DNA of 64,000 nt. Source: Gemmatimonadota bacterium. Its GTDB lineage: Bacteria > Gemmatimonadota > Gemmatimonadetes > Gemmatimonadales > GWC2-71-9. Positions 1 through 60,210 of this stretch are shown in pieces; the first letter of the stretch is position 1; each line of letters opens with the position of its first letter. The DNA lies in the NCBI GenBank assembly GCA_016713435.1, contig JADJPD010000029.1, forward strand, positions 4,708 to 68,707, read 5' to 3'. The position numbers and the translations under genes are program-made. The notes under the pieces were generated by a model. The model had not been told where the DNA came from. It did no database searches and saw only the letters and a list, made by a program, of their open reading frames with translations.

Positions 1-1
1 C

Positions 2-1631
2 GCCCTCGCCTGGCACTTTCGCGCCGCCGCCCTCACCACCGGCCAGGACGACGCCATCTACCTCCTCCTCGCCAAGGCGCTCCGGGCGGGGAGTTACCGC
101 GACCTCTGGCTGGTGGAGGCGCCGGTGGAGTCGCGCTATCCGCCGGGGTATCCGGCGTTCCTGGCGGTGTTCGCGGGGACGGGCCCGGGGATGTTCGCGC
201 GCGGGGTGGCGCTCAACATCGCGCTCTCGATGCTGGGGCTGGCGCTGGCCTACCTGGTGGCGCGGCGCTGGTCGGCGCCGCTCGCCGCGCTCACGGTGGT
301 GGTGCTGGCCGTCAACCCGTCGCTGGTGCACTACGCCGGCGAGGTGCGGAGCGAGCCGCTCTTCCTGGTGCTGTCGCTGCTGGTGCTGGTGCTGCTGGCG
401 CGGCCGGCGCCGGGGCGGGGTCGCATGGTGCTGGCGGGCGCCCTCGCCATCCTCGGCGCCCTGACCCGAAGCATCGGGCTGGTGCTGCTGCCGGTGGTGC
501 TCGTCCCCTGGCTCCGCGCGCGCGCCTGGCGCGCCGCCGGCGCCTACGCGCTGGTGGCGCTGCTCACCGTGGGGGGCTGGCTCCTCTGGACGGTGCGCGC
601 CCCCGTGAAGCTGGCGGGCGAGAGCTACGTGGCCGATGCGCTCCTCTCGCACCCGCCCGCGCCCGCCCCGCGGCGGGCGCCACGCGGGGGCCGCGGTGCC
701 GGCGCCGGTCCCGTCCCCCGGCCTCGGCGCACCCGCGCCCGATGACGCCCCGGGCGCCGGCGCGGAGCCCGAGGGCCCCGCCGCGCGCTCGCGGAGCCTG
801 CTGGCACGCATCGGGGCGCGGGTGCGGCATCACGTGCCGGCGTTCATCGTGCGGCGGATCCCCACGCTGCTCGCCTGGCCGGCGGTGCCCGGCACCCGCC
901 TCGACAACCTCGCCGCGGCGCTCCTCGTCACCGTGGCGGGCGCCGTGGGCCTGGCGCTGGTGGCGGTGCGCTCGGGGCCCGCGCTCGTGTACCTGGCGGG
1001 CTACGCGGGCGTGCTGCTGGTGTGGCCCTATGCGCTGGGCCGGTTCCTGGTGCCGGTGCTGCCGTTCCTGGTGCTCATGCTGCTGCTGGGCCTCGCCCAG
1101 CTGCCGCGGCTCTGGCGCGGGGGCGAGCGCTGGCGGGCGGCGCTGCCGCTGGTGGCGCTGCTCCTCGTCTCCAGCGCCGGCGCCCTCCGGGCGCGCGAGG
1201 CCACGCTCGATCGCTGCGACCGCGCCGAGCCCTATGTGTCCGCCGGCTGCTTCACCGAGCGGCAGCGCGCCTTCTTCGCGATGACAGGTGTGGTGGCGAC
1301 CGCGCTCCCTGCTGACGCCATCCTGCTCACGCCCAAGGCCGCGACGCTCACGCTGCTCACGGGCCGCCGCACGGTGCACGAGCTCTACGCCGCCTCCCTC
1401 ACCCCCGACGCGCTGCTCCCTCACCTCGACCAGCTCGGCGTGAGCCACATCCTTCTGAGCCGGGTGCACGCCGACCAGCGCGCCCTGGCCCGCGACCTGC
1501 TCCCCGCCTGCGACGAGTTCCGCGTCCTCGCCACCGCCGGCGACGAGGCCCTCCTCCTGGCCCGCCAGCCCGCCGGCGCCGAGGCGCGGGCGTGCGGGCG
1601 CATCTCGGCGTTTCTCGGGGGGCAGTGGTGA
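2..1631 (+). CDS. ArnT/PMT-type (GT39/GT83-like) polytopic membrane glycosyltransferase; 5' end lies outside the window and the reading frame changes between ~650 and ~760 as assembled
   Basis: Frame 2 from nt 2 reads ALAWHFRAAALTTGQDDAIYLLLAKALRAGSYRDLW..YPPGYPAFL followed by several hydrophobic helices (ORF 113..745). The protein continues in frame 0 (ORF 636..1631) with more helices and a soluble tail ending at 1631. No single frame spans both parts. Confidence 0.55.
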
Positions 1632-1650
1632 GGGCGCGGTGCGCAGGGGC

Positions 1651-1881
1651 TTACCGCAGAGGCGCGGAGACGCAGAGGGCCGCAGAGGACCTGCGCTCGG
1701 AGCGGAGAGCCCACCGCAAAGGGAGTGCAGTGAATTGAGGGTGGTCTGGCAGCACGGTCAGGGACTGCTGTCGAACCCGAACGGACACCCACCAAAAGAC
1801 AGTGGGCTCACCTTGCGGTGAGCCCACCATCCTCGAGCAGTTCCTCTGCGGCCCTCTGCGTCTCCGCGCCTCTGCGGTGAA
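1651..1881 (+). mobile_element. MITE/REPIN-like element copy 1 (about 50-bp terminal inverted repeats, non-coding)
   Basis: The left arm 1651-1702 (TTACCGCAGAGGCGCGGAGACGCAGAGGGCCGCAGAGGACCTGCGCTCGGAG) is the near-perfect reverse complement of the right arm 1832-1881 (..CCTCTGCGGTGAA). The arms recur at 18456, 25544 and 59977. It lies between convergent genes. Confidence 0.7.
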
Positions 1882-1899
1882 TCCTCCACGCACCATGCC

Positions 1900-3427
1900 T
1901 CACCCCCCCCCCAACGCCCCCCCACCAATCTCCGCCCGCCGCCGCTCGAGCAGCGCCGGGTCGAAGGGCGCCGGGTAGGTCCAGGTCTCGGTCCACGCCA
2001 GCACCAGCGAGACCCCGGCGACCACCGCCGCCGTGACCGTGAGCGCCGGCGCCAGCCGCCCGTGGCGGATAGTGCCCACCAGCCAGGCGCCGCCGACGGC
2101 CGCCGCCAGCCAGAGGTGGAGCGGCAGCAGCACGAAGGGCCCCACGCCCCCCGACGTCTTCGGCGTGAGCGCGTAGGGCCGCGAGCGGCCGCGCAGCACG
2201 TCGAGCAGCGCGCCGGCGAAGTGGGGCCACTTGGCGTACTGCAGCAGCCCGGCGCGCCAGTGCCAGCCGCCCTCGTGCCGCCTGTCCAGGAAGTACGCAA
2301 AGCGGAACCGCTCCGCCGCGTGCAGCAGCAGGTACAGCCCCAGCACCAGCAGCAGCCCCTCGGCGCCGAGGAACGCGGGCGCGGCGTTGTCGGCGAGCAT
2401 GCCGAGGAGGGTGGGGAAGAGGATGAGCCAGAGGAGCGGCCGCAGGAAGTGCGCGCCGTGGAGCAGCGACAGGACGCCGTCGGTCACCGGCAGCCCGCGC
2501 CGGAGCCGGGCGACGGCCTCGCGCTTGAGGTCGAGCACGGCGCGCGCCCAGCGGGTCTGCTGCACCAGGTAGGCCCGCCAGTCCACCGGCGTGGTGCCGA
2601 GCGCCAGGATCTCGGGCACGTACACCCCGCGCCAGCCGGCGCCCCGGTAGCGCAGGGTGAGCAGCAGGTCCTCGGCGTCGTGGTCGGGGAAGCCGCCGGG
2701 GGAGGCGTCGGCGAGGGCCGCGAGCCGATGGCAGCCGTGGCTCCCCACCACGATGGGATGGCCCAGCGCGTAGCTCGCCATCTGGTGGGTGGAGTAGTAG
2801 GCGTACGTCTCCTCCGCCGCCCCGCGCGCAATGAAGCTGGCGGGCTGGTTGTAGTACACCTGCGCCGCCTGCACGTAGCCCACGCCGGGGTCCTGGAAGT
2901 AGCCCAGGGTCCGCTCCAGGTAGCCGGGCTCGGGGACCTGGTCGCTGTCGAAGGCCGCCAGCACGTCGTACTCCCGGAACCCCACCTCGGCCAGCCAGGC
3001 GTTGTAGTTCCCGTGCTTGGACCGCGCCGCGAAGCGGCCGGCCCCGGCCTGGTACTCCGGGCGGTGGCGGCGGGAGAAGTGGCGGACGCCCAGCCGGGCG
3101 CAGAGCCCGCGCACGGCGGGGTCGTCGCCCTCGTCGAGCACCCAGGTGTCGTGCGGGGTGCGGAGGGCCACGAGGGCACTGAGGGTGCGCTCCAGCATGG
3201 CGAGCGGCTCCGCCCCGGGACGATCGTGGTGACGGCCGCCACCGGAGCCTCCTCCCCGCGGCGAGCGGCACCGGGCGGCGCATGCGCCAGAGCGGGGTCC
3301 AGCGGAGGGCCCACACCAGCACCTCGTAGCCGAGCACCAGCGTGGCGATGGCGTAGAGGGGGACGTGGTCGCCCTGGCCGGGGAGGGTGGCCCATTGGTA
3401 GGCAAAGAGCATGACCCCGAGGGCCAC
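1900..3427 (-). CDS. Family-2 glycosyltransferase, cellulose-synthase-like with C-terminal TM helices; frameshifted near its N-terminus as assembled
   Basis: The long frame gives AEPLAMLERTLSALVALRTPHDTWVLDEGDD..FDSDQVPEPGYL..QQTRWARA followed by TM helices, with the stop at 1900. The N-terminal TM segment (VALGVMLFAYQWATLPG..WRMRRPVPLAAG) and the beta1 strand (EEAPVAAVTTIVPG) sit in the two other frames between ~3200 and ~3290. The start (GTG 3427 or ATG 3412) is uncertain. Confidence 0.6.
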
Positions 3428-3666
3428 CAGCGGCCGTGAGCCCCAGGTAGCGGCGGCGGCCGCCCTGGTCCAGCACGGCCTCGTCGCGCACGGGGGTGCG
3501 CTCCTCCGCCAGCGCGGTGGCGGTGGCCTCGATCCAGTCCCTGCGTGCGTGCACCCTGCCTCCCGGTCGGTGGCGCCGATGCCGGCCCAGAGCCTAGGGA
3601 CGGCGGGGCGGGGGCGGCCCGCCACGCGCGGTGGGCCCGTGACCGCGCGTGCGCGTCTCTCATGCC

Positions 3667-4590
3667 ATGACGCCCACCGCCCTCGACGTGCCCGAGTCCC
3701 GGTCGCCCACCACCGGGGCGCCGATGGCACCTCGCCCCGCGCGGCCGCCCGCGCTGCAGGACCTCTGGGCCTCCATGCGCGACCTCGCGGGCCACCACGA
3801 GCTCCTCGTGGAGCTGACGAAGCGCGACCTCCGGATCCGCTACACCCAGGCCGCCATGGGCGTGCTCTGGGCGGTGCTCACGCCGCTGGTGGTGGCGCTC
3901 TCCGGCTGGATGATCCGGTTCGGCATGAGCTACCTGGCGGGGGCGCCGATCCGGGCGCCGGAGCTGGCGGGGATCGCCATCAAGGCGGTGGCGTGGTCGT
4001 TCTTCACGGGGGCCATCTCGTTCGGGACGCTGAGCCTCACCGCCAACCTGCCGCTCGTCACCAAGGTGTACTTCCCCCGCGCCATCCTGCCGCTCTCGGC
4101 CGTCACCACCCAGATGGTAGACACCGCCATCGGCGCCGCGGCGCTGCTGGTGGTGCTCCCCCTCGCCCACATCGGCGTCCACCGCACACTCCTCTGGGTG
4201 CCGCTGCTGCTGGCGCTGCTGGTGCTGTTCACCAGCGGGCTCACGCTGATCGCGGCGGCGGGCAACGTCTTCTATCGCGACGCCAAGCACGTGATCCAGC
4301 TGGTGACGAGCTTCGGGATCTTCTTCACGCCGGTGTTCTTCGACGCGGGGGCGTTCGGACCGCGGGGGACGCGGTTCCTGCTCCTCAACCCGCTCGGCCC
4401 CGTCTTCGAGGGGCTCCGGCTGGCGATCGTGGACGGGCACCCGCTGCTGGTGCCCATCGTCAACGCCGAGGGGACGGTGCTGTGGAGCGCGGCGTACCTG
4501 GGCTACGCGGCGCTGTGGGCGGTGGGGCTGGCGTTCTTCGGGGCGCTCCTCTTCCGGCGGGTGGAATTCTCCTTCGCGGAGTACGTGTGA
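3667..4590 (+). CDS. ABC-2 type polysaccharide export permease (Wzm/TagG-like)
   Basis: Contains LWASMRDLAGHHELLVELTKRDLRIRYTQAAMGVLWAVLTPL plus about 6 TM helices. The TGA at 4588-4590 overlaps the GTG of the next gene. The start is ambiguous (GTG 3649, ATG 3667 or ATG 3724). Confidence 0.75.
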   Translation: MTPTALDVPESRSPTTGAPMAPRPARPPALQDLWASMRDLAGHHELLVELTKRDLRIRYTQAAMGVLWAVLTPLVVALSGWMIRFGMSYLAGAPIRAPELAGIAIKAVAWSFFTGAISFGTLSLTANLPLVTKVYFPRAILPLSAVTTQMVDTAIGAAALLVVLPLAHIGVHRTLLWVPLLLALLVLFTSGLTLIAAAGNVFYRDAKHVIQLVTSFGIFFTPVFFDAGAFGPRGTRFLLLNPLGPVFEGLRLAIVDGHPLLVPIVNAEGTVLWSAAYLGYAALWAVGLAFFGALLFRRVEFSFAEYV

Positions 4591-5792
4591 GCGGGCTGAT
4601 CGAGCTGGAGCGGGTGTGGAAGAAGTTCCGCTACGGCGAGGGCCACGGGCGGCTCCGGGACGCGATCCCGGCGCTGGTACGCCGCGCGCTCCGCCGCCCC
4701 GACCCCGACGCCGGCCTGCACCGGGGCGAGTTCTGGGCCCTGCAGGACCTCTCCTTCACCGTGCGGCCGGGACAGGCCCTCGGCCTCATCGGGCCCAACG
4801 GGGCGGGGAAGAGCACGGCGCTCAAGCTCCTCTGCGGCATCATGCGCCCCACGGCGGGGCGCTGCACGGTGCGCGGGCGGGTGGGCGCCCTCATCGAGGT
4901 GGCGGCCGGCTTCCACCCCGACCTCACCGGCCGCGAGAACATCTACCTCCAGGGCACCATCATGGGCATGCCGCGGCGGGAGATCACGGGCAAGTTCGAC
5001 GAGATCGTGGACTTCTCCGGGCTCGCGCCCTTCCTCGAGACGCCGGTGAAGCGCTACTCGAGCGGCATGCACGCGCGCCTCGGCTTCGCCATCGCGGCGC
5101 ACCTCGAGCCCGAGGTGCTGCTCATCGACGAGGTCCTCGCCGTGGGCGACGCGGCCTTCCAGGAGAAGGCCTTCGGCCGGATCACCGAGCTGGTGCAGCA
5201 GGACATCCCCGTGGTGGTGGTGTCCCACCAGCTCGACGCCATCACCACCCTCTGCACCCGGGCGCTGCTGCTGGACCAGGGCCAGGTGGCGCTCGCCGGG
5301 ACGCCGCAGGAGTGCATCACCGCCTACCTCCACGGCGTCACCGCGGCGCACGGGCCGGGGAGCGGGGACAGCCCGGTGCGGATCCTGGGCATCCACCTGG
5401 GGCGCGCGGCGGTGGAGTCGGGGCAGCGGCTCGGCGTGGAACTGACGGGCGTCACCGACGGCGGCCCCGCGGCCGACCGGCTCTCGGTCCGGGTGCGGGT
5501 GCGCCTGGCGCAGACGGGGGAGACGGTGTTCGAGACCGGCACCACCCAGCTCGGCCTCGCCCTGCCCGGGGCGGGGGAGTTCGCGCTGCAGCTGGAGCTG
5601 CAGATGAACGTGGCCCGCGGCATCTACCTGGTGGAGTCGGCGGTGTGGGACCGGCTGCACGGGCGGCAGCTGCTGCGCGGGCCGTCGAGCTATGTGGAGG
5701 TGCGGGGCGGGCCGCCGTTCGAGGGGCTGGTGCAGATGCATCCCCGCGCCCGCCTGCTGTCCGGCAGCTCCACGGCGGGGCACGTCCCATGA
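4587..5792 (+). CDS. Polysaccharide export ABC ATPase (Wzt/TagH-like) with a C-terminal beta-rich extension (possible Wzt_C glycan-binding domain)
   Basis: Walker A GPNGAGKST, signature YSSGMHARL and Walker B LLIDEVLAVGD are present, followed by an extra domain of about 150 aa. GTG 4587 overlaps the permease stop (GTGTGA). The N-terminal part of ORF 3411..5792 is a spurious read-through. Confidence 0.8.
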   Translation: MSGLIELERVWKKFRYGEGHGRLRDAIPALVRRALRRPDPDAGLHRGEFWALQDLSFTVRPGQALGLIGPNGAGKSTALKLLCGIMRPTAGRCTVRGRVGALIEVAAGFHPDLTGRENIYLQGTIMGMPRREITGKFDEIVDFSGLAPFLETPVKRYSSGMHARLGFAIAAHLEPEVLLIDEVLAVGDAAFQEKAFGRITELVQQDIPVVVVSHQLDAITTLCTRALLLDQGQVALAGTPQECITAYLHGVTAAHGPGSGDSPVRILGIHLGRAAVESGQRLGVELTGVTDGGPAADRLSVRVRVRLAQTGETVFETGTTQLGLALPGAGEFALQLELQMNVARGIYLVESAVWDRLHGRQLLRGPSSYVEVRGGPPFEGLVQMHPRARLLSGSSTAGHVP

Positions 5793-7111
5793 CCACGCCC
5801 GCCACCCGGAAGCTCGGCCCCGCGCTCCGCCGGCCGGGCGTGGAGCAGGTGGCCCGCGCGGCGCCGAGCAGCCCCATGGTGCCGGGCCGGGCGGGGCACC
5901 GCCCCGTGGCCATCGTGGACCTCGAGGCCAGCGCCCTCCCCCCCGCCGTGCAGGTACCGCGGCACTACGGCTCGGCGCTGGTGCTCTTCCGCTGGCACGG
6001 CGTCCCCGTGGGCCAGGCGGTGCTCCCCGTGCGCGAGGGGCGGGTCCCCGCCGACCTGCTCCGCGCCGCGCTCGAGCGGGAGGCCGCCCCCCGCATCGCC
6101 CGGCGCGAGCTGCGCCGCTGGCTCGGCGCGCCGGAGGATGAGGCGGTGGGGCCGCTGCCGTCGGTGTCGGTGGCCGTCTGCACCCGCGACCGCCCCGAGG
6201 ACCTGGCCCGCTGCCTCGCGGCGCTGGCCCGGCTGCCGGACACGGGCCACGAGGTGCTGGTGGTGGACAGCGCCTCGCATGGGGACGCCACCCGCCAGGT
6301 GGTGGCCGCGCACCCCGGCGTCCGCTACCTGCGTGAGGCGCGCCCGGGCCTGGACCGCGCCCGCAACCGCGCCCTGCGCGAGGCGCGCCACGAGGTGGTG
6401 GCCTTCACCGACGACGACGCGGCGGTGGACGCCGGCTGGCTCACCGCCATCCGCCGGCGCTTCGGCGACGCGCGCACCCTCTGCGTCACCGGGCTCACCC
6501 TGCCGCTCGAGCTGGAGACGCCGGCGCAGGTGTGGTTCGAGCGGACCAACGGCTTTGGCCGCGGCTTCGACCGGCTGGCGTTCCAGGGCGCGCTCATGAA
6601 CCCGTTCCGGATGGCGGTGGCCGGCGCCGGCGTCAACATGGCGCTCCGCCGCACGGTGACGGACCGGGTCGGTCCCTTCGACGAGGCGCTCGACGCCGGC
6701 ACGCCGACGCGCTCGGGTGGGGATCACGACATGTTCCTGCGGATCCTGCAGGCCGGGTACCAGATCGTCTACGAGCCGGCCGCGCTGGTCTGGCACCGCC
6801 ACCGGCGCGAGTGGGCGGCGCTCGAGGACGCGGTACGCGGCTACGGCACCGGGGTGTACGCCCTGCTCACCCGCCACCTGCTCGAGGGCGAGGTCGGCGC
6901 GCCGCAGCTGGCGCTCGGCTGGCTCCGCTGGCAGCTCCACGGGCTCTGGCGCGCCTGGCGCGGCGTCCCCGGCGCGGCCCCGGTGGCGCTGCACCTGGCC
7001 GAGCTCCGGGGCTGCCTCGAGGGACCGGGGGCCTACGCCCGCTCGCGCCGGCGCCTGACGGAGATGGCGCGGGCCGAGCGGGCCATCGCCGAGGCGGGGG
7101 CGGAGGCGTGA
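5789..7111 (+). CDS. Family-2 glycosyltransferase with an N-terminal extension of about 120 aa
   Basis: SVSVAVCTRDRPEDLARCLAAL, VLVVDSAS and AFTDDDA (DxD) motifs are present. ATG 5789 overlaps the upstream stop (ATGA). It is a paralogue of 8364..9653. Confidence 0.8.
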   Translation: MTTPATRKLGPALRRPGVEQVARAAPSSPMVPGRAGHRPVAIVDLEASALPPAVQVPRHYGSALVLFRWHGVPVGQAVLPVREGRVPADLLRAALEREAAPRIARRELRRWLGAPEDEAVGPLPSVSVAVCTRDRPEDLARCLAALARLPDTGHEVLVVDSASHGDATRQVVAAHPGVRYLREARPGLDRARNRALREARHEVVAFTDDDAAVDAGWLTAIRRRFGDARTLCVTGLTLPLELETPAQVWFERTNGFGRGFDRLAFQGALMNPFRMAVAGAGVNMALRRTVTDRVGPFDEALDAGTPTRSGGDHDMFLRILQAGYQIVYEPAALVWHRHRREWAALEDAVRGYGTGVYALLTRHLLEGEVGAPQLALGWLRWQLHGLWRAWRGVPGAAPVALHLAELRGCLEGPGAYARSRRRLTEMARAERAIAEAGAEA

Positions 7112-8360
7112 TGCTGCCGGCGCTCAGCGTGGTGATCCCCACCCACAACCGGCGCGACTCGCTGCTCCGCCTCCTCGCCGCACTGGAGCGCGGCACCCTG
7201 CCCGCCGAACGGTTCGAGGCGGTGGTGGTGGCGGACGGCTGCGCGGACGACACGGTGCGGGCTGGCGGCGGGCGCGTCGTTCTCGTTCCCCGTGCGGGTG
7301 TGCGAGCAGCAGCCGGGCGCGGCGCCGCCGCCGCCGGAACCTGGGCGCGGAGCAGGCGCGCGGTGCCGTGCTCGTCTTCCTGGACGATGACATCGAGCCG
7401 CTGCCGACCCTCCTGGCCACGCACCTCGACCTCCACGCCCGCCACGCCGACGAGCCCACCGCCGTGATCGGCGCCCCCATCCCCATCCGCGGCCCGCGCG
7501 ACTCGTACCAGCACATCGCCGTGTGGCATTGGTGGGAGGAGCAGCTGGCCCGGATGGAGCGGCCGGGGCACCGCTTCTCCTACCAGGACGTCTTCACCGG
7601 CGTTTTCTCGCTGCCGAAGGGCCTGTTCATGGCCACCGGCACCTTTGCCTGTGACCTGCCGGAGAGCTGCCGCGACGACTGGGAGTTCGGCATCCGGCTG
7701 CTGGCGCGTGGCACGCGGCTCCTCTACACCCGCGAGGGCGGCGGCTGGCACCACGAGATGCGGAACCACGCCGGCCTGCACGCGCGGAAGCTGGCCGAGG
7801 GCCGCGCCGACGTGGCGATTGCACGGCGGCATCCTGAGCTCTGGCCGTCGCTCCGGCTGGCGCAGCCGGTGGCGGGGCTGGCGCGGCGGCTGGTGTGGCT
7901 GGCGTTCCGGTCGCCGCGCCTGGCGGAGCGGTTCGAGCGGCTGGCGGCGCGGGTGCTGCCCGCGCTGGAGCGGCTCGGCGCGCGCGGCACCTGGCGGCAG
8001 GTGCAGGGGGCGGCGCTCCACTCCGCGTACTGGCGCGGGGTGGCGGTGGAGCTGGGCGGGCAGTCGCCGGCGCGGGAGCTGCGGCGGCTGGCGGCGCACG
8101 CGCAGGAGCGGCGCCGGGTGGCGCCGCCCCGCATCCTCCGGCTGGACCTGGCGTGGGGGCTGCCGGCGGCGGAGTTCGCCCTGGAGGCGGCGCGGCCGCA
8201 CGGGGCGGAGCTCCGCTGGGGCGCCATCCCGCTCGGCCACATCGCGGCGGCGCCCGGGCACGAACGGCTCCGGGGCCGTCACCTCCGGATGGAGCTGGCG
8301 GGGCCGCTGGCGCCGCGGCTCATGGTGGCGCTGGCGCTCGGCGCCGGGGCGCGGGACTGA
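7111..8360 (+). CDS. Family-2 glycosyltransferase, frameshifted (three frames used between ~7255 and ~7335) as assembled
   Basis: Frame 1 gives MLPALSVVIPTHNRRDSLLRLLAAL..VVVADGCADDTV. Frame 2 gives FPVRVCEQQPG. Frame 0 gives RNLGAEQARGAVLVFLDDDIEP.. through to the stop at 8360. The length is not a multiple of 3. Confidence 0.6.
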
Positions 8361-8363
8361 CGC

Positions 8364-9653
8364 GTGGCGGCCAGGCTGCACCAGCTCGGGCCCCCGGTGC
8401 GGGTGCTGGCGCTGGAGCTCACCGAGCCGCTGCCGCTGCTCACCGGCTGCGGCGGCTTCCGCGCACTCCGCTGCCTGGTGCGGCGCGAGGGGCGGCCGCT
8501 CGGCTGGCTCACGGTGGAGTTCCCGCCGCCGGTGGTGACGCCGGCGCTCTTCTTCGGCGCGCTGGCGCAGCAGCTGCCGCACGCCATCACCTCCGCGGTG
8601 GTGACGGCGGAGCTGGCGCCGGCACGGCGGCCGCGACCCTCGGCCCTCCCGCCCATCAGCGTGGTGGTGTGCACCCGCGACCGGGCGGAGTCGCTGGCGC
8701 ACTGCCTCGCCTCCCTCGCGGCACTCGATTACCCGCGCTTCGAGGTGGTCGTGGTGGACAACGCCTCCCGGGGTGAGGCCACCCGGCGGGTGGCCACCGC
8801 CGCCGGCGTGCGCTACGTGCGCGAGGAGCGGCCCGGGCTCGACTGGGCGCGGAATTGCGGCATCCGCGAGGCGCGGCACGCCATCATCGCCTTCACCGAC
8901 GACGACGTACGGGTGGACCCGGGCTGGCTGCTCGGCCTCGCGGCCGCCTTCGCCGACCCGGAGACGCAGCTGGTCACCGGGCTCATCGCGCCGGCCGAGC
9001 TCACCACGGCGGCGCAGCTGGCGTTCGAGTACGCGTACGGCGGCATGGACAAGGGGGTGGTGCCGGTGCGCCGCGCCGCGCGCTCGCCCGCGGACCTGGG
9101 CGCGCTGCTCGGCGCGCACCACCTGGGCGCCGGCGCCAACATGGCGTTCCGCCGCGCCATCTTCGACGAGGTGGGGAGCTTCGACACCGCGCTCGACGTC
9201 GGCACGCCGGCCCGGGGCGGCGGGGACCTCGACATGTTCTACCGCGTGCTCGCGTCAGGCGCGGTGGCGCGCTACGCGCCCGAGGCGCTGGTGTGGCACA
9301 CCCACCGCCGCGACTTCGCCGCGCTCCGGCGCCAGCTCCGCGACAACGGCCGCAGCTTCGGCGTGTACCTGATGACCCGCTGGAACGAGGCCCGGCCGGA
9401 CGGCCGCGGGGGCCTGGCCCGGTTCCAGGTGGCGCGCTACGCGACCGGGACCTGGCTGCGCTGGATGGGGAGCCGGGTGGTGCGGCGGTTCCAGAAGCAG
9501 GAGCCGCTCCCGCTCTGGCTGCAGGCGGAGGAGATCTGGGGGATGCTCACGGCGCCATGGGCGTTCACCGCCACGCGGCGGAGCGACGCCCGGCTCCGCG
9601 CCCGGACGCAGGCGCCGGGGCCCGCCTCCCGCCGGGCGACCGGGCGGCGCTGA
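8364..9653 (+). CDS. Family-2 glycosyltransferase with an N-terminal extension of about 100 aa (paralogue of 5789..7111)
   Basis: ISVVVCTRDRAESLAHCLASL, VVVVDNAS and AFTDDDV motifs are present. The C-terminal half is collinear with the 5789 gene (GGGDLDMFYRVL / GGDHDMFLRIL). The start is GTG. Confidence 0.8.
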   Translation: MAARLHQLGPPVRVLALELTEPLPLLTGCGGFRALRCLVRREGRPLGWLTVEFPPPVVTPALFFGALAQQLPHAITSAVVTAELAPARRPRPSALPPISVVVCTRDRAESLAHCLASLAALDYPRFEVVVVDNASRGEATRRVATAAGVRYVREERPGLDWARNCGIREARHAIIAFTDDDVRVDPGWLLGLAAAFADPETQLVTGLIAPAELTTAAQLAFEYAYGGMDKGVVPVRRAARSPADLGALLGAHHLGAGANMAFRRAIFDEVGSFDTALDVGTPARGGGDLDMFYRVLASGAVARYAPEALVWHTHRRDFAALRRQLRDNGRSFGVYLMTRWNEARPDGRGGLARFQVARYATGTWLRWMGSRVVRRFQKQEPLPLWLQAEEIWGMLTAPWAFTATRRSDARLRARTQAPGPASRRATGRR

Positions 9654-9729
9654 GCGGAAACCGCCTGTCGGCTTCATGCGACGGGCCGCGTCTCCCCTGC
9701 ACACCCGCGGCATCCACCCCGGAGACACA

Positions 9730-10051
9730 CCCGCGGGGCCCCCCCGGGGCCCCGGGGGCGGGGGGGGCGGGGGCGGGGGCCGGGCCGGGGCCCGGGGCCG
9801 GGGCGCCGCCGCGGGGGGGGGGCGGCGCCCCGCGGGGGGGCCCGGCGCCCCGCCGGCCGGGGGCGGCCCCCCCCCCCCCGCGGGGGGGGGGGGGGGGGGG
9901 GCCCGCCGCGGCGCCGGGGCCCCCCCCCCGGGGGGGGGGCGGCCCCGGGGGGGGGGGCGGCGGGGGGGCGGGGGCGGTGGGCGGGGGGGGGGGGGGGGGG
10001 GGGGCCGGGGCCCCCGCCGGGGGGGCGGCCCGGCCCCCCCCCGCCCGGGGG
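9730..10051. repeat. Low-complexity tract of essentially only G and C (a single T at 9978), with long homopolymers
   Basis: Direct reading shows no A and one T across 322 nt. There are G runs of 20 (9882-9901) and 22 (9983-10004) and a C run of 13 (9867-9879). It lies between the last GT2 gene and the DUF326 gene. Confidence 0.9.
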
Positions 10052-10134
10052 TCTGCCGCCGACGCCTGAGACGGACCGGGCGCCATTGGTGCCCGCGCTC
10101 CCCTTCCTTCCGCTGCTTCCGAGAGGACGCTTCT

Positions 10135-10494
10135 ATGGCTCACCAGACCGCGCCGCACCTCAGCCGCGAGATGCTCGACTGCATCGACGAGTGCCAGCAC
10201 TGCCATGCTACCTGCCTGGCCACTGTGCGGCATTGCCTCGAGATGGGCGGCAGGCACGCCGAGCCGGGGCACATCGCCCTGCTGCTGGACTGCGCCCAGA
10301 TCTGCGCCACCAGTGCCGACTTCATGCTGCGGAACTCGCCGCACCACCACCACACCTGCGCCGCCTGCGCGGAGATCTGCCGCGCCTGCGCCGAGGACTG
10401 TGAACGGGTGGACCCGAACGACGCGATGATGAAGGAATGCGCGGAGGATTGCCGGCGGTGTGCCGAGGAGTGCGCGCGGATGGCGACGGCGTAG
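10135..10494 (+). CDS. Cysteine-rich four-helix-bundle protein (DUF326 / copper-storage-like)
   Basis: Repeated CxxxCxxC(xxxC) helices are present: CIDECQHCHATC, DCAQICATS, CAACAEICRACAEDC and CAEDCRRCAEEC. A GAGAGGA sequence lies 8 nt upstream of ATG 10135. Confidence 0.8.
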   Translation: MAHQTAPHLSREMLDCIDECQHCHATCLATVRHCLEMGGRHAEPGHIALLLDCAQICATSADFMLRNSPHHHHTCAACAEICRACAEDCERVDPNDAMMKECAEDCRRCAEECARMATA

Positions 10495-12320
10495 GGGCTG
10501 GTGGCCGTGGTGCCGGAGCGCCGCTCCGGCAACGCGATCCTCACCTCCGAGTGGCCGGAGCAGGCTCCGGCGCTACGGGACTGCCGGCCGCCCCGGCTGC
10601 CGAGCGCTTCCATCGCCGCGGCAAGGGCCTGGTCGCGCCAGCGGGTGAGGAGGTCGGCGGGGAGGCCGGTGGTGGCGGTGAGGGCGTCGAGCGACTCGCC
10701 ACCGAGGAGCCGGAGGACGATGCGGCGGCGGTCCTGGTCGGTCCAGGTGGCGGGGTCGGGGCTGAGGGCGTCGGGCGGCGGGGCAGCGCGGTCGGGAGCG
10801 TGGGCCTGCGGGAGGCTCCGGCGGGCCAGGTGGCGGCGCTCGAGGGCGCGTTCCACCTGCCGGCGCCAGTGGAGCACCAGCGCGCGGGCGCGGTCGTCGA
10901 GGGCGCCCTCGCCGCGGCGGTCGGCGTAGAGACAGCCGATGAGCGCCTCCTCCAGCACCAGCGGCATCACGGCGAAGGCGCCCGCGCCGAGCGCCGAGGC
11001 GAGCAGCCGGTCATCGCCGCGCATGGTGCCGCTCACGAAGAGGTCGCGCCGGTCGAGCAGCGCCACGCCGAGCGAGCTGGTGCGGCTGGTGGCCGCGAAG
11101 CGGAACTGCGCCACCAGCTGGTCCACCCGTTCCCCCCACCCGAAGCGCCCCACCACCTCGTGGCGCGACGGCGTGAGCAGGCAGAAGAGCACCCGTTCGT
11201 AGCGGCCCGCGCGGGCCAGCGCGCGGAGGCCGTGCTCCAGCGCCGCGTCGAAGTCGAACCCCGGCTCCAGGCGCAGGTCGCCCGGCGGGTCGTCACCGGC
11301 GGGATCGCCGGCGACGGGGGGCAGCCCGTCCGCTCCATGCAGCCCCGGCCCGAGCTCGGCGACGCCATCGGTGGGGGTGAGCGGGTGGCCCAGCACCCGC
11401 ATGGTCTCCGCCACCTGCAGCTCGTAGTGCAGCGAGTCGAGCGTCACGCCCATCGCGGCGGCCGTCTCCCGCGTTTCCGCCAGCCCGGCCTGCACCACCT
11501 CGGCGAACTGCTCGGAGGTGACGGGCGCCCACGTCTGGTACTTCTCGAGCAGGCCGGCGAGCGCCGGGTCGGGGGTCCCCGCGCCGTGGCGGTAGGCCAT
11601 GGTGGTGAGCTCGTGCGCCATCGCCGTGATGGCGCCGAGCGGGGTGGCCTGCGCGGCGCCCGGGGTCATGACGGCGGCGATGTTGGTCATCCCGAGGCGG
11701 CGGCAGAGCGCGCGCCCGAGCGCCTCATACGGAAAGCCGAGCACCTTGATGGCGGCGAAGCCGCTGGGGAGCTGCTCCGTCTCCGCGAGGGCGCGGATCT
11801 GCGCGTACTCCCGCTGGAAGTGGCAGGCCACCAGCACCTCGCCCAGGTTGCGGAACATGCCGCAGAGGTACGCTTCCTCGGGGCTCGGGTAGTGGAGCCG
11901 GGTGGCCAGCTCGCGCGCGTGGTTGGCGGAGAGCATCGAGAGCAGCATCAGCTCCCGGAGCCCCGGCGACTTCCGCTGGTAGTGCTCGAACAGCATGAGG
12001 CCGACGACGAGGTCGCGGATCGTCTTGGCGCCGATCAGCGCGATGGCGTGCGTGGCGGTGAGCGCCGAGGTGCCCCAGCGGTTGTAGTAGGGGGAGTTGG
12101 CGGTCTTGAGGACCTTGAGGGTGAGGCCGTACTCCTTGAGCACCACGTCGGCCACTTCGCTCACCGAGGTGCGGTCGTCCTGCACCCAGGCCAGGATGGT
12201 GCCCACCTGCCGCGCGATGGCGGGGAAGCCCTCGCCCGCCATGATGCGCTCGAGGTAGCGCTCCACGGCGGCCCCCTGGTCGGCGGGCAGGGGCGTGGGG
12301 AGGGGGACGGGGACGGTCAC
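10140..12320 (-). CDS. HDOD-domain signalling protein with a central GAF-like region and a C-terminal HTH-like segment; the true 3' end is uncertain
   Basis: The N-terminus has FPAIARQVGTILAWVQDDRTSVSEVADVVLKEYGLTLKVLKTANSPYYN (HDOD). Later come GAF-like FAVMPLVLEEALIGCLYADR and RRRIVLRLLGGESLDALTATTGLPADLL. The last ~120 codons of the open frame are antisense to the DUF326 gene and run through two hairpins, so the real stop is probably near 10,500-10,600. Confidence 0.6.
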   Translation of the reverse strand: MTVPVPLPTPLPADQGAAVERYLERIMAGEGFPAIARQVGTILAWVQDDRTSVSEVADVVLKEYGLTLKVLKTANSPYYNRWGTSALTATHAIALIGAKTIRDLVVGLMLFEHYQRKSPGLRELMLLSMLSANHARELATRLHYPSPEEAYLCGMFRNLGEVLVACHFQREYAQIRALAETEQLPSGFAAIKVLGFPYEALGRALCRRLGMTNIAAVMTPGAAQATPLGAITAMAHELTTMAYRHGAGTPDPALAGLLEKYQTWAPVTSEQFAEVVQAGLAETRETAAAMGVTLDSLHYELQVAETMRVLGHPLTPTDGVAELGPGLHGADGLPPVAGDPAGDDPPGDLRLEPGFDFDAALEHGLRALARAGRYERVLFCLLTPSRHEVVGRFGWGERVDQLVAQFRFAATSRTSSLGVALLDRRDLFVSGTMRGDDRLLASALGAGAFAVMPLVLEEALIGCLYADRRGEGALDDRARALVLHWRRQVERALERRHLARRSLPQAHAPDRAAPPPDALSPDPATWTDQDRRRIVLRLLGGESLDALTATTGLPADLLTRWRDQALAAAMEALGSRGGRQSRSAGACSGHSEVRIALPERRSGTTATSPYAVAIRAHSSAHRRQSSAHSFIIASFGSTRSQSSAQARQISAQAAQVWWWCGEFRSMKSALVAQIWAQSSSRAMCPGSACLPPISRQCRTVARQVAWQCWHSSMQSSISRLRCGAVW
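10512..10571. terminator. Two copies of the palindrome GCCGGAGC-N-GCTCCGGC between convergent genes (terminator-like hairpins)
   Basis: 10512-10530 reads GCCGGAGCG-C-CGCTCCGGC and 10554-10571 reads GCCGGAGC-AG-GCTCCGGC. There are no T-tracts. Confidence 0.4.
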
Positions 12321-12406
12321 GGCGCCTCGGGCTGAGCCGGGGGCGGGACGCTCCTGCCCCCTGTCCTTCCCCTATCGGCCCGCGGGCGGGAAAGCTGTAG
12401 CGGACG

Positions 12407-14292: not shown

Positions 14293-14846
14293 GGGGCCTC
14301 CGCGGGGACGGGGAGGGTGTCGCGCAGCTGCTCGAGGTGGCGGCGGTAGGCGGCGGCGGCCGCGTCGATCTCCGGCAGCTCCATGCGGTGGCTGCCCAGC
14401 ACCACGTAGGGCGGGAGCCATTCCATGCCGCAGAGCCGCGCGGTCTGTTCCACGGGGAAGAGGAAGTCGGTGACCGGGTGCGCGTTGAAGCCGCCGGGCT
14501 GGTACGCCTGGGCGCCGCCGCCGGCGCTGGTGACCACCTGCAGCCGCTTGCCCCGGAGCCGGGTGCCGGCGCGCCCGTAGGCCCAGCCGTGCTCCAGGAC
14601 CAGGTCCTGCCACTGCTTGAGGATGGCGGGGGTGCTGTACCAGTAGAGCGGGTACTGCAGCAGGATCACGGGGTGGGTGAGCAGCAGTTCCTGCTCCCGC
14701 CGCACGTCGATGTCGAAGTCCGGGTACGCCTCGTAGAGGTCGTGGACGTAGACGCCGGGGAGGCCCGCGGCCGCGTCGAGCAGGCGGCGGTGGACCCGGG
14801 ACTTCTCGAGCGCGGGATGCGCAAAGAGCACGAGGATGGAGGCCAT
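14289..14846 (-). CDS. kefF: Flavodoxin-like NAD(P)H quinone oxidoreductase, KefF/KefG-type ancillary subunit
   Basis: MASILVLFAHPALEKSRVHRRL..LLQYPLYWYSTPAILKQWQD is present. It is translationally coupled to the kefC-like gene. The ORF upstream of ATG 14846 is not protein-like. Confidence 0.75.
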   Translation of the reverse strand: MASILVLFAHPALEKSRVHRRLLDAAAGLPGVYVHDLYEAYPDFDIDVRREQELLLTHPVILLQYPLYWYSTPAILKQWQDLVLEHGWAYGRAGTRLRGKRLQVVTSAGGGAQAYQPGGFNAHPVTDFLFPVEQTARLCGMEWLPPYVVLGSHRMELPEIDAAAAAYRRHLEQLRDTLPVPAEAP

Positions 14847-14923
14847 GCCCGAATGATCCCCGGTCCCGGTTTGGCCGCAAGCCCCGGATAGCCGCCGCCC
14901 CGCCCGGCCCTTATCCTCCTGCC

Positions 14924-17065: not shown

Positions 17066-18548
17066 GTGGACCCGATCGAGCGCGACTGCTTCTGGCTCGC
17101 GGGGCTCGCGCCCCGCGAGGTGACCCCGCTGGCCGCACCCGCCACCGCCGACATCGTGGTGGTGGGCGCCGGCCTCACGGGGCTCTGGTGCGCGCTCTTC
17201 CTCAAGGAGATGGCGCCGGAGCGGGAGGTCGCGGTGGTGGAGCAGGGCATCGCCGCCTACGGGGGCGAGCGGCCGGAACGCCGGCATGCTCTCCGAGACC
17301 GTGGACCACAGCCATGCCCTGGCCATCCAGCACTTCGGGATGGACGAGGCCCGCCGCCTGGCCCGCGTGGGCGAGGCGAACGTGGCGGAGATGCTCGCCT
17401 TCCTGGCCGAGCGAGGCATTGCCTGCGAGTGGGAGCCGACGGGGCGCCTCATGGTGGCGCTCACCGACGGGCACGTCGAGGAGTGCCACCGGAACCTGGC
17501 CATCGCGCAGGAACTCGGCATCACGGGCTGGCGCTACCTCAGTGCGGACGAGGTGCGGGCCGAGGTGCACAGCCCGCTCTACCGGGGCGCCCTGGCGGTG
17601 AGCCGGGGCGGCATCTGCAACCCGGCGCGGCTCACCGACGGCCTTCGCGCCGAGGCGGTGCGCCAGGGGGTGCGGGTGTACGAGCGGTCGGTGGTGCGCG
17701 CCATCGAGGAGGAGGGGCGCCAGCTCCGGGTGCGGAGCGCGGCGGGCGGCTCGCTCGTGGCCGGGCACGTGGTGCTGGCGACGAGCGCCTACACCCACCA
17801 CCTGCTGCCGAGGGTGCTGCGCCGCTTCATCCCGCTGTACGACTACATCATGGTCAGCGAGCCGCTGAGCGCCGCCCAGTGGCAGGCGATCGGCTGGCAG
17901 AAGCGCCAGGGCATCACCGACGGCCGCACCTTCTTCAACTACTACCGGCCAACGGCCGACGGCCGGGTGCTCTGGGGCACCAGCGAGGCCGCCTACCACG
18001 GCCCGAACCGCGTGGACCCGGCGTGCGACCACTCGCCTGGTCACTATGCCTCGCTCGAGGCCGGCTGGAAGCGGCACTTCCCCGATGCGGCGGACTTGCG
18101 CTGGGAGTACCGGTGGGGCGGTGCCATCTGCTCCACTACGCGCCTGACGCCGTTCTTCGGCCGTGCCTTCGAGAACCGGCTCTCCTACGGCCTCGGCTTC
18201 ACCGGCCACGGCCTCGGCAGCACCCGCATCGCCGGGCGCATCCTGGCCCACATGGCCCTGAACCGTCCTGGCGACGTGCTCTCCCTCCCGCTCGTGACCC
18301 AGCCCCCCTTCCCATATCCGCCGGAGCCGCTCCGCGGCTGGGCGGTGAACGCGGTGACGCGCGCGCTGCGCCAGGTGGACGAGGGGCGGCCGCCGAACCT
18401 CATGCTGCGGGCGCTGGACCGGCTGGGGATCGGGTTCGTCGGGTGGGCGCGGGGGTTCACCGCAGAGACTCAGAGGCGCGGAGGGCGCAGAGGACCTGCA
18501 CGGCACAGCGGGGCTGTCTCGAGACGAGCCCGCCGTCCGGGGGTGTGA
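17066..18548 (+). CDS. FAD-dependent oxidoreductase (DAO family, gamma-glutamylputrescine-oxidase-like); 1-nt frameshift at GGGGG 17261-17265, and the stop codon lies inside repeat element copy 2
   Basis: ADIVVVGAGLTGLW (dinucleotide fold) is in frame 2. After the G5 run, the frame of ORF 17286..18548 continues as ..SGRNAGML... Deleting one G restores the GASGRNAG motif. The last ~30 codons are element sequence. Confidence 0.7.
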
Positions 18549-18676
18549 GTTCGGCCCAGGCCACGACCCCATCCGGCTGCCAGACCACCCTAAATTCACT
18601 GCACTCCCGTCGCGGTGGGCCCCTCTCGAGCGCAGGTCCTCTGCGGCCTCTGGGTCCTCCGCGCCTCTGCGGTGAA
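18456..18676 (-). mobile_element. MITE/REPIN-like element copy 2 (inverted relative to copy 1)
   Basis: The arms are TTCACCGCAGAG..GCAGAGGACCTGC and ..GCAGGTCCTCTGCGG..CGCGCCTCTGCGGTGAA. The internal block CCAGACCACCCTAAATTCACTGCACTCCC is the reverse complement of the copy 1 block. Confidence 0.7.
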
Positions 18677-25543: not shown

Positions 25544-25766
25544 TTCACCGCAGAGGCGCGGAGCCGCAGAGGGCCGCAGAGGACCTGCGCTCGGAGAGGG
25601 GAGAAATTCTCAGGGTGAGTGCAGTGAATCAGAGGTGGCTGGGGCGGGGGGGGGGGGGGGGGGCCGGAGGGGCCCCCCCCCCACCCCAGCGGGGTACCTA
25701 GGGTGAGCCCACCATCCCCGAGCAGGTCCTCTGCGGCCCTCCGCGTCTCCGCGCCTCTGCGGTGAA
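25544..25766 (+). mobile_element. MITE/REPIN-like element copy 3, whose centre is replaced by a G18...C10 tract
   Basis: The arms TTCACCGCAGAGGCGCGGAGCCGCAGAGGGCCGCAGAGGACCTGCGCTCGGAG and ..CCTCTGCGGTGAA are present, as are the internal GAGTGCAGTGAAT and GGTGAGCCCACCATCC blocks. There is a G/C-only stretch at 25641-25690. Confidence 0.7.
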
Positions 25767-58698: not shown

Positions 58699-60066
58699 AT
58701 GCATCGTCCCGCGGCCGCCGCCGTCCTCGTCCTCAGCTTCGTGGCCGCGCCCGTCGCGGCGCAGTCCGACCCGGCGCTGCTCCGCCGCGCGGAGCGCCTG
58801 CTCGACCAGACGATCCTCATTGACGGCCACAACGACCTCCCCTGGGAGATCCGCACCAACAGGGACCACCCGCGCGACGTGGCTGCCTACGACCTGCGGC
58901 AGCGCACCCCCGGCCACACCGACCTCGCCCGGCTCCGCGCCGGCCACGTCGGGGCGCAGTTCTGGTCCATCTACATCCCCGGCGAGATCCGGGACAGCGG
59001 CTACGCCCGGGTGCAGCTGGAGCAGTTCGACATCGCCCGCCGCATGGTGGCGCGCTACCCCGAGGCCTTCACCCTGGCGCTCACCGCCGACGACATCGTC
59101 GCGGCGCACCGCAAGGGCCGCATCGCCACCCTCCTCGGCATGGAAGGCGGCCACGCCATCGAGAACTCGCTCGGCGCCCTCCGCTCGTACTACGCCCTCG
59201 GGGCCCGCTACATGACGCTCACCCACAACGTCACCCTCGACTGGGCCGACGCCGCGCAGGACACCCTGAAGCACGGCGGCCTCACCCCCTTCGGCCGCGA
59301 GGTGGTGCGGGAGATGAACCGGCTCGGCATGCTGGTGGACCTGAGCCACGTCTCCCCCGGCGTCATGAGCGACGCGCTGGACGTGGCGGAGGCCCCGGTG
59401 ATCTTCTCGCACTCCTCCGCCTACGCGATCACGCCTCACAAGCGGAACGTCCCCGACTCCATCCTGGCCCGCCTCCCGAAGAACGGCGGCGTGGTCATGG
59501 TGACGTTCGTCTCCTCGTTCATCTCCGACGCCAACCGCCGCGCCGACCTTGCCGCCGACAGCGCCGTGGGCGCCGCCCTCCGCGGCATCACCGACTCCAC
59601 CGAGCGACGCCGCATCGCGCGCGAGGTCCGCGCCGCGCACCCCGTCCCGCCCGCCACCATCGCCGACGTGGCCGACCACATCGAGCACGTGGTCAAGGTG
59701 GCCGGCATCGACCACGTGGGCCTGGGCGGCGACTACGACGGCACCACCGACCTCCCCGTCGGGATGGAGGACGTCTCGAAGTACCCGGCGCTCTTCGCCG
59801 AGCTCATGCGCCGTGGCTGGAGTGACGCCAACCTCAAGAAGCTCGCGGGCGAGAACCTGCTCCGCGCCTTCCGCCAGGCCGAGCGCACCGCCGCCCGCCT
59901 CCAGCGCGAGCCCACGGCGACCATCGAGCTGCGACGATCGAGTCGCTGCACCAGCGGTGCCCGGCGCCGGTGTGACTCAACGCAGAGACGCGGAGGGCGC
60001 AGAGGGCCGCAGAGGACCTGCGTTCGGAGTTGGCGGGTCGCCTCAGGGACAGCCCGCGGTCTTTGA
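58699..60066 (+). CDS. Membrane (renal-type) dipeptidase, peptidase family M19; the ORF runs ~30 codons into repeat element copy 4
   Basis: It has a signal peptide, then IDGHNDLPWEIR, GMEGGHAIE, TLTHN, DLSHVS, FSHSS and GLGGDYDG motifs. The stop at 60064-60066 lies inside the element. Confidence 0.8.
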   Translation: MHRPAAAAVLVLSFVAAPVAAQSDPALLRRAERLLDQTILIDGHNDLPWEIRTNRDHPRDVAAYDLRQRTPGHTDLARLRAGHVGAQFWSIYIPGEIRDSGYARVQLEQFDIARRMVARYPEAFTLALTADDIVAAHRKGRIATLLGMEGGHAIENSLGALRSYYALGARYMTLTHNVTLDWADAAQDTLKHGGLTPFGREVVREMNRLGMLVDLSHVSPGVMSDALDVAEAPVIFSHSSAYAITPHKRNVPDSILARLPKNGGVVMVTFVSSFISDANRRADLAADSAVGAALRGITDSTERRRIAREVRAAHPVPPATIADVADHIEHVVKVAGIDHVGLGGDYDGTTDLPVGMEDVSKYPALFAELMRRGWSDANLKKLAGENLLRAFRQAERTAARLQREPTATIELRRSSRCTSGARRRCDSTQRRGGRRGPQRTCVRSWRVASGTARGL

Positions 60067-60210
60067 GCGGGTGTGGCTCCGGGTCCGGCAATCGGATCCC
60101 AACCCGTAGCGGCGCCCAATCCCAGGAAGGGCAGAGCCCGGGGCTCGCTAGACGCCTCCCCAGGCTCGATCCGCAGGCCCTCTGCGGCCCTCCGCGTCTC
60201 TGCGCCTCCC
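59977..60210. mobile_element. MITE/REPIN-like element copy 4 (degenerate; only the arms are conserved)
   Basis: The left arm is TCAACGCAGAGACGCGGAGGGCGCAGAGGGCCGCAGAGGACCTGCGTTCGGAG. The right arm is CCGCAGGCCCTCTGCGGCCCTCCGCGTCTCTGCGCCTCC. The internal sequence is unrelated to copies 1-3. Confidence 0.6.

Follow-up and report, generated by a model that had tools for sequence, protein, structure and literature searches.

A dispersed palindromic cassette with GCAGAGG-unit arms at gene 3' ends in Gemmatimonadota

Four copies at convergent gene junctions

The window analysed here is the whole 64,000-nucleotide (nt) stretch of a Gemmatimonadota bacterium contig (GenBank JADJPD010000029.1, positions 4,708 to 68,707 of the forward strand; assembly GCA_016713435.1), which has a GC content of 73.7% and whose genes were mapped by the GC content of third codon positions (GC3). 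Four of its ten convergent gene junctions are occupied by ~230-bp copies of one element, a cassette bounded by ~50-nt inverted arms. In a repeat search of the window, the two arms of a copy are 88-92% complementary over a length of 49-58 nt. The arm pattern CGCAGAGN{10,35}GCAGAGGRMCTGC matches just the eight arms and nothing else in the 64 kb, compared to 0 matches expected from 100 shuffles. The units are 221-270 nt in size with a GC content of ~74%, contain no transposase, and share 80-85% identity over the whole unit between unrelated loci. The RNA of the copy 1 unit (1632-1899) has a predicted folding energy of -182.3 kcal/mol, with a z-score of -12.95 against dinucleotide shuffles. The parts of the four copies, followed by the remaining convergent junctions, are listed below.

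1632..1899: copy 1, full unit, from the stop of the plus-strand gene (ending at 1631) to the stop of the minus-strand glycosyltransferase gene (starting at 1900)
1650-1881: copy 1, core with the terminal inverted repeats
1650..1702, plus strand: copy 1, left arm, composed of CTTACC, GCAGAGG-type units (one of them the shorter GCGGAG) and ACCTGC; A-side variant GACCTGCGCTCGGAG
1703..1785, plus strand: copy 1, A-side interior, with the decayed mirror hairpin GAGCCCACCGCAAAGGGAG, the conserved block GAGTGCAGTGAATTGAGGGTGGTCTGG and the central hairpin C (1748-1772)
1786..1827, minus strand: copy 1, terminator-like module, hairpin B GTGGGCTCACC-GCAA-GGTGAGCCCAC (1802-1827) followed by the tail UGUCUUUUGGUGGGUG (1801-1786)
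1829..1881, minus strand: copy 1, right arm, B-side variant GAACTGCTCGAGGATGG in inward reading
18456..18676: copy 2, interior opposite in orientation to that of copy 1; hairpin B on the plus strand at 18508-18533, U tract lost
25544..25766: copy 3, interior orientated as in copy 1; centre (25634-25694) corrupted by G/C homopolymers
59977..60210: copy 4, the most diverged, with arms at 59977-60027 and 60160-60210
60032-60076, plus strand: copy 4, diverged hairpin-B-like structure plus the tail GGTCTTTGAGCGGGTGTGG
31167/31282, 42234/42335, 44858/44924 and 56089/56146: convergent junctions with plain hairpins
39853/39857: convergent junction with a 3-nt gap between the genes of an ABC-F type ATPase and an unannotated 483-aa protein, with no room for a terminator structure
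9653/10140: tenth convergent junction, with ~300 nt of G/C homopolymer runs (9745-10051)

All four loci had been described in the initial annotation as sharing inverted arms, and the arm pattern recovers each of them with 8 of 8 arms. An internal block that it assigned to copies 1 and 2 in inverted orientation was returned by the repeat search as 45 nt at 93% identity, and the string GGTGAGCCCACCATCC is indeed found beside the right arm in copies 1 and 3. Copy 4 had been described as arms only; it also possesses the diverged hairpin-plus-tail module listed above. The count of ten convergent junctions stands, as do the element at four of them and the 3-nt gap at one; the ordinary GC-rich hairpins number four and not five, and the tenth junction consists of homopolymer runs.

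These runs (9745-10051), as well as those in copy 3 (25634-25694), look like assembly or polishing artefacts, and real sequence, perhaps another element, may lie hidden in the tenth junction. The contig orthologous to copy 3, L128 (contigs and loci of relatives are cited by L numbers), has flanks 95% identical to those of the window and carries ordinary sequence where the window has poly-G/poly-C, from which we conclude that the centre of copy 3 is corrupted; outside this centre the two copies are almost identical.

In copy 1, the terminator-like module points so as to act on the minus-strand gene. Two flanking open reading frames (ORFs) extend into the element. The DAO-family oxidoreductase ORF (18420-18548) has lost its own stop to a small deletion that shows in comparison with L113; it runs on for 31 codons inside copy 2, up to position 18548. 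The M19 dipeptidase ORF (59880-60066) stays open for ~30 codons into copy 4, well beyond the end of its Pfam domain. One of the plain-hairpin junctions separates a plus-strand cluster of five tRNA genes (44396-44858; His-GTG, Trp-CCA, Glu-CTC, Glu-TTC and Lys-CTT) from a convergent Ser/Thr kinase gene, and the strong hairpin there comes after the cluster.

Anatomy and distribution of the cassette

Alignment of 22 oriented copies revealed a common design. Each arm starts with TTCACC, continues with GCAGAGG-type units (usually four, spaced 8-10 nt) and ends with ACCTGC or AACTGC, or, in its general form, TTCA(C/A)C followed by three to five tandem GCAGAGG units and A(A/C)CTGC. Outside the TTCACC, the copies have in common a degenerate G-rich sequence of ~20 nt (GGGGCTNGGYGCG...), and the adjoining stop codon usually lies 15-26 nt from TTCACC. 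Because this extension reaches to the nearby stop codons, the repeated unit fills the whole gap between two stops. Pairing is well maintained across the 22 copies: 93.8% of the cells are paired, and both-side changes occur in 17 pairs, compared to 7.1 in shuffles (0 of 500 reach 17).

The interior is asymmetric. On one side, a strong hairpin B, GTGGGCTCACC-TTGC-GGTGAGCCCAC, sits inward from its arm, and after it comes a tail rich in U and G, for example UGUCUUUUGGUGGGUG or AUGUUUUUGUGGGUG; most copies have hairpin B with tails such as UGUCUUUUGG or AUGUUUUUGUGGG. The stem of hairpin B occurs in two types, CTCACC/GGTGAG and CTCGTC/GACGAG, which are two compensated pairs apart. On the other side lies a decayed mirror image, GAGCCCACCGCAAAGGGAG ... 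GTGAATTGAGGGTGG, and a small hairpin C occupies the centre. In one subfamily (L005, L082:2300 and L113) the mirror side is intact, giving two face-to-face terminator-like modules.

To examine the distribution of the family, a species-representative genome collection was scanned with the arm pattern, and matches were confirmed with a hidden Markov model of the eight arms. Among the matches listed, to which the figures below refer, the real ones are concentrated in metagenome-assembled genomes (MAGs) of Gemmatimonadota, so the arm is not confined to the window. One locus, L094 of the Gemmatimonadales MAG_MBR_H10.49, is co-linear with window positions 783-8781 at 93.7% identity, which indicates that the window comes from a close relative of this MAG. 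At least 14 contigs of MAG_MBR_H10.49 carry copies, and a stricter 20-mer search added a further 25 short metagenome contigs. Many MAG contigs begin or finish inside a copy, as expected of a high-copy repeat. At four copies per 64 kb, a whole genome would by extrapolation contain a few hundred.

Other Gemmatimonadaceae MAGs and Longimicrobium have the same TTCA(A/C)C-(GCAGAGG N1-3)3-5-AACTGC arms with different interiors, and throughout the phylum the ends keep the motif TTCAMC...GKTGAA. The lower-GC CBHWBX lineage has an element of ~183 nt that encloses a canonical terminator, GAACGGCGAC...GTCGCCGTTC plus TTTTTT, and L091 resembles it. The Longimicrobium arms close on a loop of 6-8 nt, often next to a separate canonical terminator. 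The Gemmatimonadetes MAG RYN_360 has CACAGAGG-type arms nested in CGCAGAGG-type arms, together with (GGCACAGAGG)n arrays of five or more units (nested or expanded loci at L041 6450-6650, L034 208-380 and L080 1250-1431), which indicates insertion of element into element, or slippage of arm units. Overall, the family is dispersed through Gemmatimonadota, and it is the arm design, not the interior, that is phylum-wide.

Arms or elements of the TTCAACGCAGAG...GCAGTTCCTCTGCG design are also present on contigs binned outside the phylum, namely L095 1667-1788 (a Chthoniobacteraceae MAG), L049, L104 and L064. These bins are Verrucomicrobiota, Acidobacteriota or unclassified bacterium, and mis-binning or horizontal transfer could explain them.

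The gene context of the copies follows a simple rule. For four copies falling by chance in the 10 convergent of the ~48 junctions of the window, we estimate a probability of ~0.002. Among relatives in the lineage of the window, copies with both flanks callable number 12 at convergent, 7 at co-directional and 0-1 at divergent junctions, and the 3' end of a gene adjoins 45 of 60 element sides. A half element at a co-directional junction is orientated in the direction that would terminate the upstream gene. The claim that copies occur only at convergent junctions is therefore true of the window (4 of 4) and too strict for its relatives: the cassette is placed directly after a stop codon and not in divergent promoter gaps, with a strong, not exclusive, preference for convergent junctions. 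Such enrichment near the 3' ends of coding sequences, above all between convergent genes, is also a hallmark of SPRITE-type repeats.

Junction states, inversion and conservation among relatives

Junctions 2 and 3, the sites of copies 2 and 3, were followed in relatives through orthologs of a flanking gene. The states are listed below, with the identity of the flanking protein to that of the window.

Junction 2 (aminotransferase / DAO oxidoreductase), window, L112 and L143, 97-100%: CGCAGAGG-type copy
Junction 2, L111, 98%: oppositely orientated half copy, together with an unrelated palindromic repeat
Junction 2, L113 and L114, 95%: CACAGAGG-subfamily copy; this subfamily is also present at the unrelated locus L082:2300
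Junction 2, L115-117, 88%: empty, with 12 nt between the stops
Junction 2, L144, 86%: GCGAAGG-type relative
Junction 2, L145 and L146, 84-85%: plain terminator hairpins
Junction 3, L147, 81%: empty, TGA-GGCGCGCGG-CTA, with 9 nt compared to 265 nt in the window
Junction 3, L148-151 (~2767-2865), 73%: analogous palindrome, (GGCGGNAG)n - canonical terminator hairpin - (CCGAGCCG)n, between the two stops, with a strain-variable number of units

The variation of these junction states, combined with the 80-85% identity of whole units at unrelated loci, argues for dispersal of the unit and not for growth in place. The palindrome of L148-151 suggests that the building of stems from short tandem units on either side of a terminator is more widespread in the phylum. 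Insertion of the cassette into existing hairpins was considered and rejected, as the difference between within-copy and between-copy flank similarity is not significant in the lineage of the window (p ~0.09), and the flanks share the degenerate 20-nt arm extension. As a separate observation, the palindromic repeat that takes the place of the far half of the element in L111 (3940-4060; arms GCGGCGGAGCTACGCTCCGCCGACT / AGTCGGCGGAGCGTAGCTCCGCCGC) was found neither in the window nor in the other fetched loci. Upstream of junction 3 lies the gene of a leishmanolysin-like Peptidase_M8 protein with Big_1 and CarboxypepD_reg domains (21830-23461, plus strand).

Comparison of orthologous copies revealed that the interior can flip. 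Between copy 1 and L094, the flanks and the outer ends of the arms are co-linear, including the arm-specific differences, whereas the interior of ~145 nt is reverse-complemented from ~GAGGA(C/A)CTGC inward. The interior is likewise inverted between L054 and L133, and between L111 and the window at junction 2. In total, two of five orthologous locus pairs have an inverted interior and the other three keep the orientation, with L111 as an additional case. The breakpoints are located inside the arms. A scan of window positions 1-20000 gave no sigma-70-like promoter site. Since the breakpoints fall in inverted repeats of 50-70 bp, and neither an invertase gene nor an internal promoter-like site was seen, we attribute the inversion to homologous recombination between the arms, which would also keep the arms matched.

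The orthologous copies are well conserved. In the comparison of the window with L094, the two flanking genes differ at 13.5-15.2% of their third codon positions, compared to 3 of 100 positions in the arms and 10 of 132 in the interior. For L054 and L133, comparing arms and interior in the inverted frame leaves ~6 differences in ~230 aligned positions. Neutral drift is expected of inserted non-autonomous copies, yet these orthologous copies surpass synonymous sites in conservation, which suggests selection at the level of the host.

Beyond the cassette, the window also encodes two further proteins with Ig-like Big_1 domains. A 3299-codon ORF (46190-56089, plus strand) contains ~30 Big_1-encoding tandem repeats, each ~309 nt long (Pfam E = 6.6e-34 in a 700-aa sample), and a second Big_1 protein (62757-64000, plus strand) runs off the end of the window.

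Interpretation and relation to known repeats

Taking these findings together, we consider it probable, if far from certain, that the element is a mobile cassette resembling a miniature transposable element with inverted repeats (MITE) and retained as a 3'-end terminator or RNA structure. The initial annotation had offered two readings, a non-autonomous MITE/REPIN-like element and a domesticated terminator or RNA-stabilising structure. Of the former, the mobile-like character stands, given the empty orthologous junctions and the different subfamilies at one junction, and the REPIN-like character is lost, as the arms are built of tandem direct GCAGAGG units. Its description of a non-coding dispersed family with terminal inverted repeats in a window free of transposase agrees with our scan of ~45 proteins. 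The latter reading fits the anatomy, in which a hairpin with a U-rich tail lies beside one arm and, in lower-GC relatives, a putative canonical terminator takes this position. The initial annotation did not mention the phylum-wide arm design, the built-in terminator-like module, the frequent flipping of the interior or the conservation above the neutral rate. With respect to MITEs, the element has terminal inverted repeats round a short core, small size, and dispersed copies with presence/absence differences; it lacks a flanking target-site duplication. With neither this duplication nor an autonomous partner found in the window or the fetched loci, membership in the MITEs is not established.

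We propose the following mechanism. The cassette would spread, or would once have spread, as a whole unit that leaves no target-site duplication, and recombination between its arms would then repeatedly flip the interior and keep the arms matched. A transcript entering from the hairpin-B side would meet the arm, the hairpin and the U-rich tail, and would terminate there. A transcript from the other side would copy both arms and form a stem of ~50 bp, which would hinder both read-through and 3' exonucleases and would probably serve RNase III as a substrate. The cassette may thereby insulate neighbouring, mostly convergent, genes from mutual transcription and define the 3' ends of their mRNAs. 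Such a role would explain the conservation above the neutral rate.

Several points weigh against this proposal. Regarding mobility, a search for direct repeats of 3-6 nt at offsets 0-30 in 10 copies gave no target-site duplication above the shuffled-pair control, in line with the initial annotation, with the qualification that the exact outer boundary of the unit is uncertain; CTAG flanks copy 3 only. Among the ~45 predicted window proteins, a scan for Pfam-type domains gave none of the transposase, recombinase or Y1 type, and in none of the fetched loci is a gene enclosed by two arms 0.5-4 kb apart. Regarding function, termination is proposed here from anatomy alone. A simple terminator scan did not flag hairpin B of copy 1, so that the terminator reading draws on inspection and on the canonical versions in lower-GC lineages. 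The U tracts are weak in this high-GC lineage and lost in some copies, such as copy 2, and the module faces the upstream gene in five of seven co-directional junctions, which is not significant. In Longimicrobium, the GCAGAGG hairpins stand beside and not around canonical terminators, which implies that the arms may have a role other than termination. The signal of constraint and the compensated arm changes could result from gene conversion between copies or arms instead of selection. Finally, gene calls on short contigs depend on the GC3 heuristic.

The most serious alternative, which we consider somewhat unlikely, is a purely selfish MITE without host function, which sits after stop codons, for the most part between convergent genes, because insertions are least harmful there, and whose hairpins are by-products of the terminal repeats. 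It would account for the presence/absence polymorphism, the subfamily structure, the ORFs damaged or extended by copies, and the orientation of the terminator module, which is not significantly matched to the upstream gene. Moreover, the same account has been given for the 3'-end bias of pneumococcal repeats and insertion sequence (IS) elements. However, the orthologous copies are 2-5 times more conserved than synonymous sites, which ectopic gene conversion could mimic; the arm design is kept throughout the phylum as the interiors change, repeatedly to interiors with terminators; and the pairing of hairpin B is kept by compensated changes.

Mobilization as a REPIN-like system by a single-copy Y1 transposase (RAYT or IS200/IS605-type) encoded elsewhere is unlikely in our judgement. 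Such an enzyme acts on single-stranded hairpins without target-site duplication, and this would agree with the strong hairpin formation of the cassette, the lack of duplications, the high copy number after gene ends, like that of REPs, and the terminal motif conserved across the phylum. Nevertheless, the arms are tandem direct repeats and not short REP palindromes with a GTAG head, the window proteins include no Y1 domain, and in no fetched locus do the arms flank a gene.

The remaining explanations are less likely still. It is improbable that the cassette is an inverton, in which a dedicated invertase flips the interior and thereby chooses which neighbouring gene is terminated or read through. 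The interior does occur in both orientations between inverted repeats (two of five orthologous pairs plus L111, with breakpoints inside the arms), its single good terminator-like module makes it polar, and Correia elements also invert. However, ordinary homologous recombination could act on arms of this length (50-70 bp), the window has no recombinase domain and no internal promoter-like site, and the two orientations come from different genomes ~5% apart and were never seen in a single population. Equally improbable is that the cassettes are non-mobile native terminators, with stems lengthened on the spot through slippage of tandem units and hairpin-templated repair and with sequences that converged. 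The tandem units of 8-10 nt, which vary in number from three to five or more, and the strain-variable palindrome of L148-151 agree with it; the sharing of whole ~230-nt units including non-repetitive interior blocks between unrelated loci, the clean empty sites and the different subfamilies at one junction do not. That GCAGAGG is a genome-wide signal, such as a DNA-uptake sequence (DUS) or a Chi site, whose inverted clusters double as terminators is hardly credible: the motif is conserved across the phylum and paired DUS of Neisseria set a precedent, yet its occurrences outside the four elements (10 compared to 8.9 expected from a third-order Markov model of the window) reveal no enrichment.

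As in the initial annotation, the element could be matched to no named family. A blastn search for plasmid relatives returned no match. An Rfam search gave no match to it at the gathering threshold, which only tRNAs in the window pass; the hits below it are generic long hairpins (for example, MIR1437 with 64 bits compared to a threshold of 168, and BjrC68 with 27 compared to 39). Searches of a paper library by topic and by sequence string found no published description of the family, the arm strings giving unrelated matches only, and nothing on repeats or terminators of Gemmatimonadota. The family is real and well defined, and appears to be undescribed. It is not a new category, as small palindromic mobile repeats that double as 3'-end structures are known, of which SPRITE, Correia and REP are the closest.

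SPRITE is a short dispersed non-coding repeat of ~105 nt, AT-rich with AAAA/TTTT terminal repeats, with ~30 copies and restricted to S. pneumoniae and S. mitis (PMC3049150). It has a long stem and a U-rich tract, lies near the 3' ends of coding sequences with enrichment between convergent genes, has no established target-site duplication, and was proposed to be a co-opted terminator (PMC3049150). The cassette resembles it in the long stem, which in most but not all copies comes with a U-rich tail, the 3'-end and convergent bias, the lack of target-site duplication and the terminator proposal. It differs in its size of 230-270 nt, its GC content of ~74%, its 50-70-nt arms of GCAGAGG units that enclose a terminator module, and its phylum-wide arm design; no sequence resemblance was noticed, and no direct comparison was run.

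Correia elements of Neisseria have 26-bp terminal repeats and a TA target duplication. A review describes terminal inverted repeats round a short core, more than 100 copies, transcripts that form hairpins and are cleaved by RNase III at the repeats, inversion of the core and variation in presence and position among strains, in addition to outward promoters, a site for IHF and a location mostly upstream of genes (PMC10969869). The cassette is similar in its terminal repeats, predicted hairpin transcripts, core inversion and varying presence between relatives, but it has no target duplication or promoter-like site and is located after stop codons.

REP/BIME sequences are GC-rich, extragenic, high-copy hairpins that favour the 3' ends of genes as well as convergent junctions and influence mRNA stability (PMC3184786). 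REPs are imperfect palindromes of 20-40 nt, often with a GTAG head, and a REPIN consists of two of them, whereas the arms of the cassette are tandem direct repeats. Membership in REP/REPIN was therefore rejected, since each arm consists of three to five tandem direct GCAGAGG units and is no palindrome; no RAYT gene was seen in the window. The enterobacterial ERIC/IRU and YPAL repeats are imperfect palindromes, 127-168 bp long, which are transcribed together with the genes whose 3' ends they occupy and alter mRNA stability depending on orientation. They differ from the cassette in having no built-in terminator module or sub-repeat arms and in belonging to another phylum; no sequence resemblance was noticed, and no direct comparison was run. 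Paired DUS of Neisseria likewise place a short motif in inverted copies that form hairpins after genes, but DUS are abundant genome-wide, whereas GCAGAGG is not enriched outside the elements.

A more speculative extension can be drawn, which we think quite unlikely as a whole. The GCAGAGG arms might be a phylum-wide platform for a conserved factor, either a mobilising enzyme that leaves no duplication or a protein that binds RNA or DNA. In that case the host would maintain the cassette as a portable terminator, and its flipping by recombination would decide which of two abutting genes receives the efficient terminator, so as to form a reversible heritable 3'-end regulator at hundreds of loci.

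Gemmatimonadota are abundant in soil and wastewater and little studied, and the family may occupy a large share of their gene-end junctions. MAG assemblies are repeatedly broken by it; with the family known, annotation improves, contig breaks become easier to account for and ORFs extended into the repeat can be flagged. If it is true that the cassette terminates both ways in a 74% GC host, it could become a compact insulating part for synthetic biology with high-GC DNA. Most deserving of further attention are the GCAGAGG arm design, the lack of target-site duplication, the flipping of a polar terminator module and the conservation above the neutral rate. A conserved arm design without target-site duplication points to a possible new mobilising mechanism, and a single junction with empty, plain-hairpin and several cassette states in close relatives provides a direct way to ask whether mobile palindromes become terminators.

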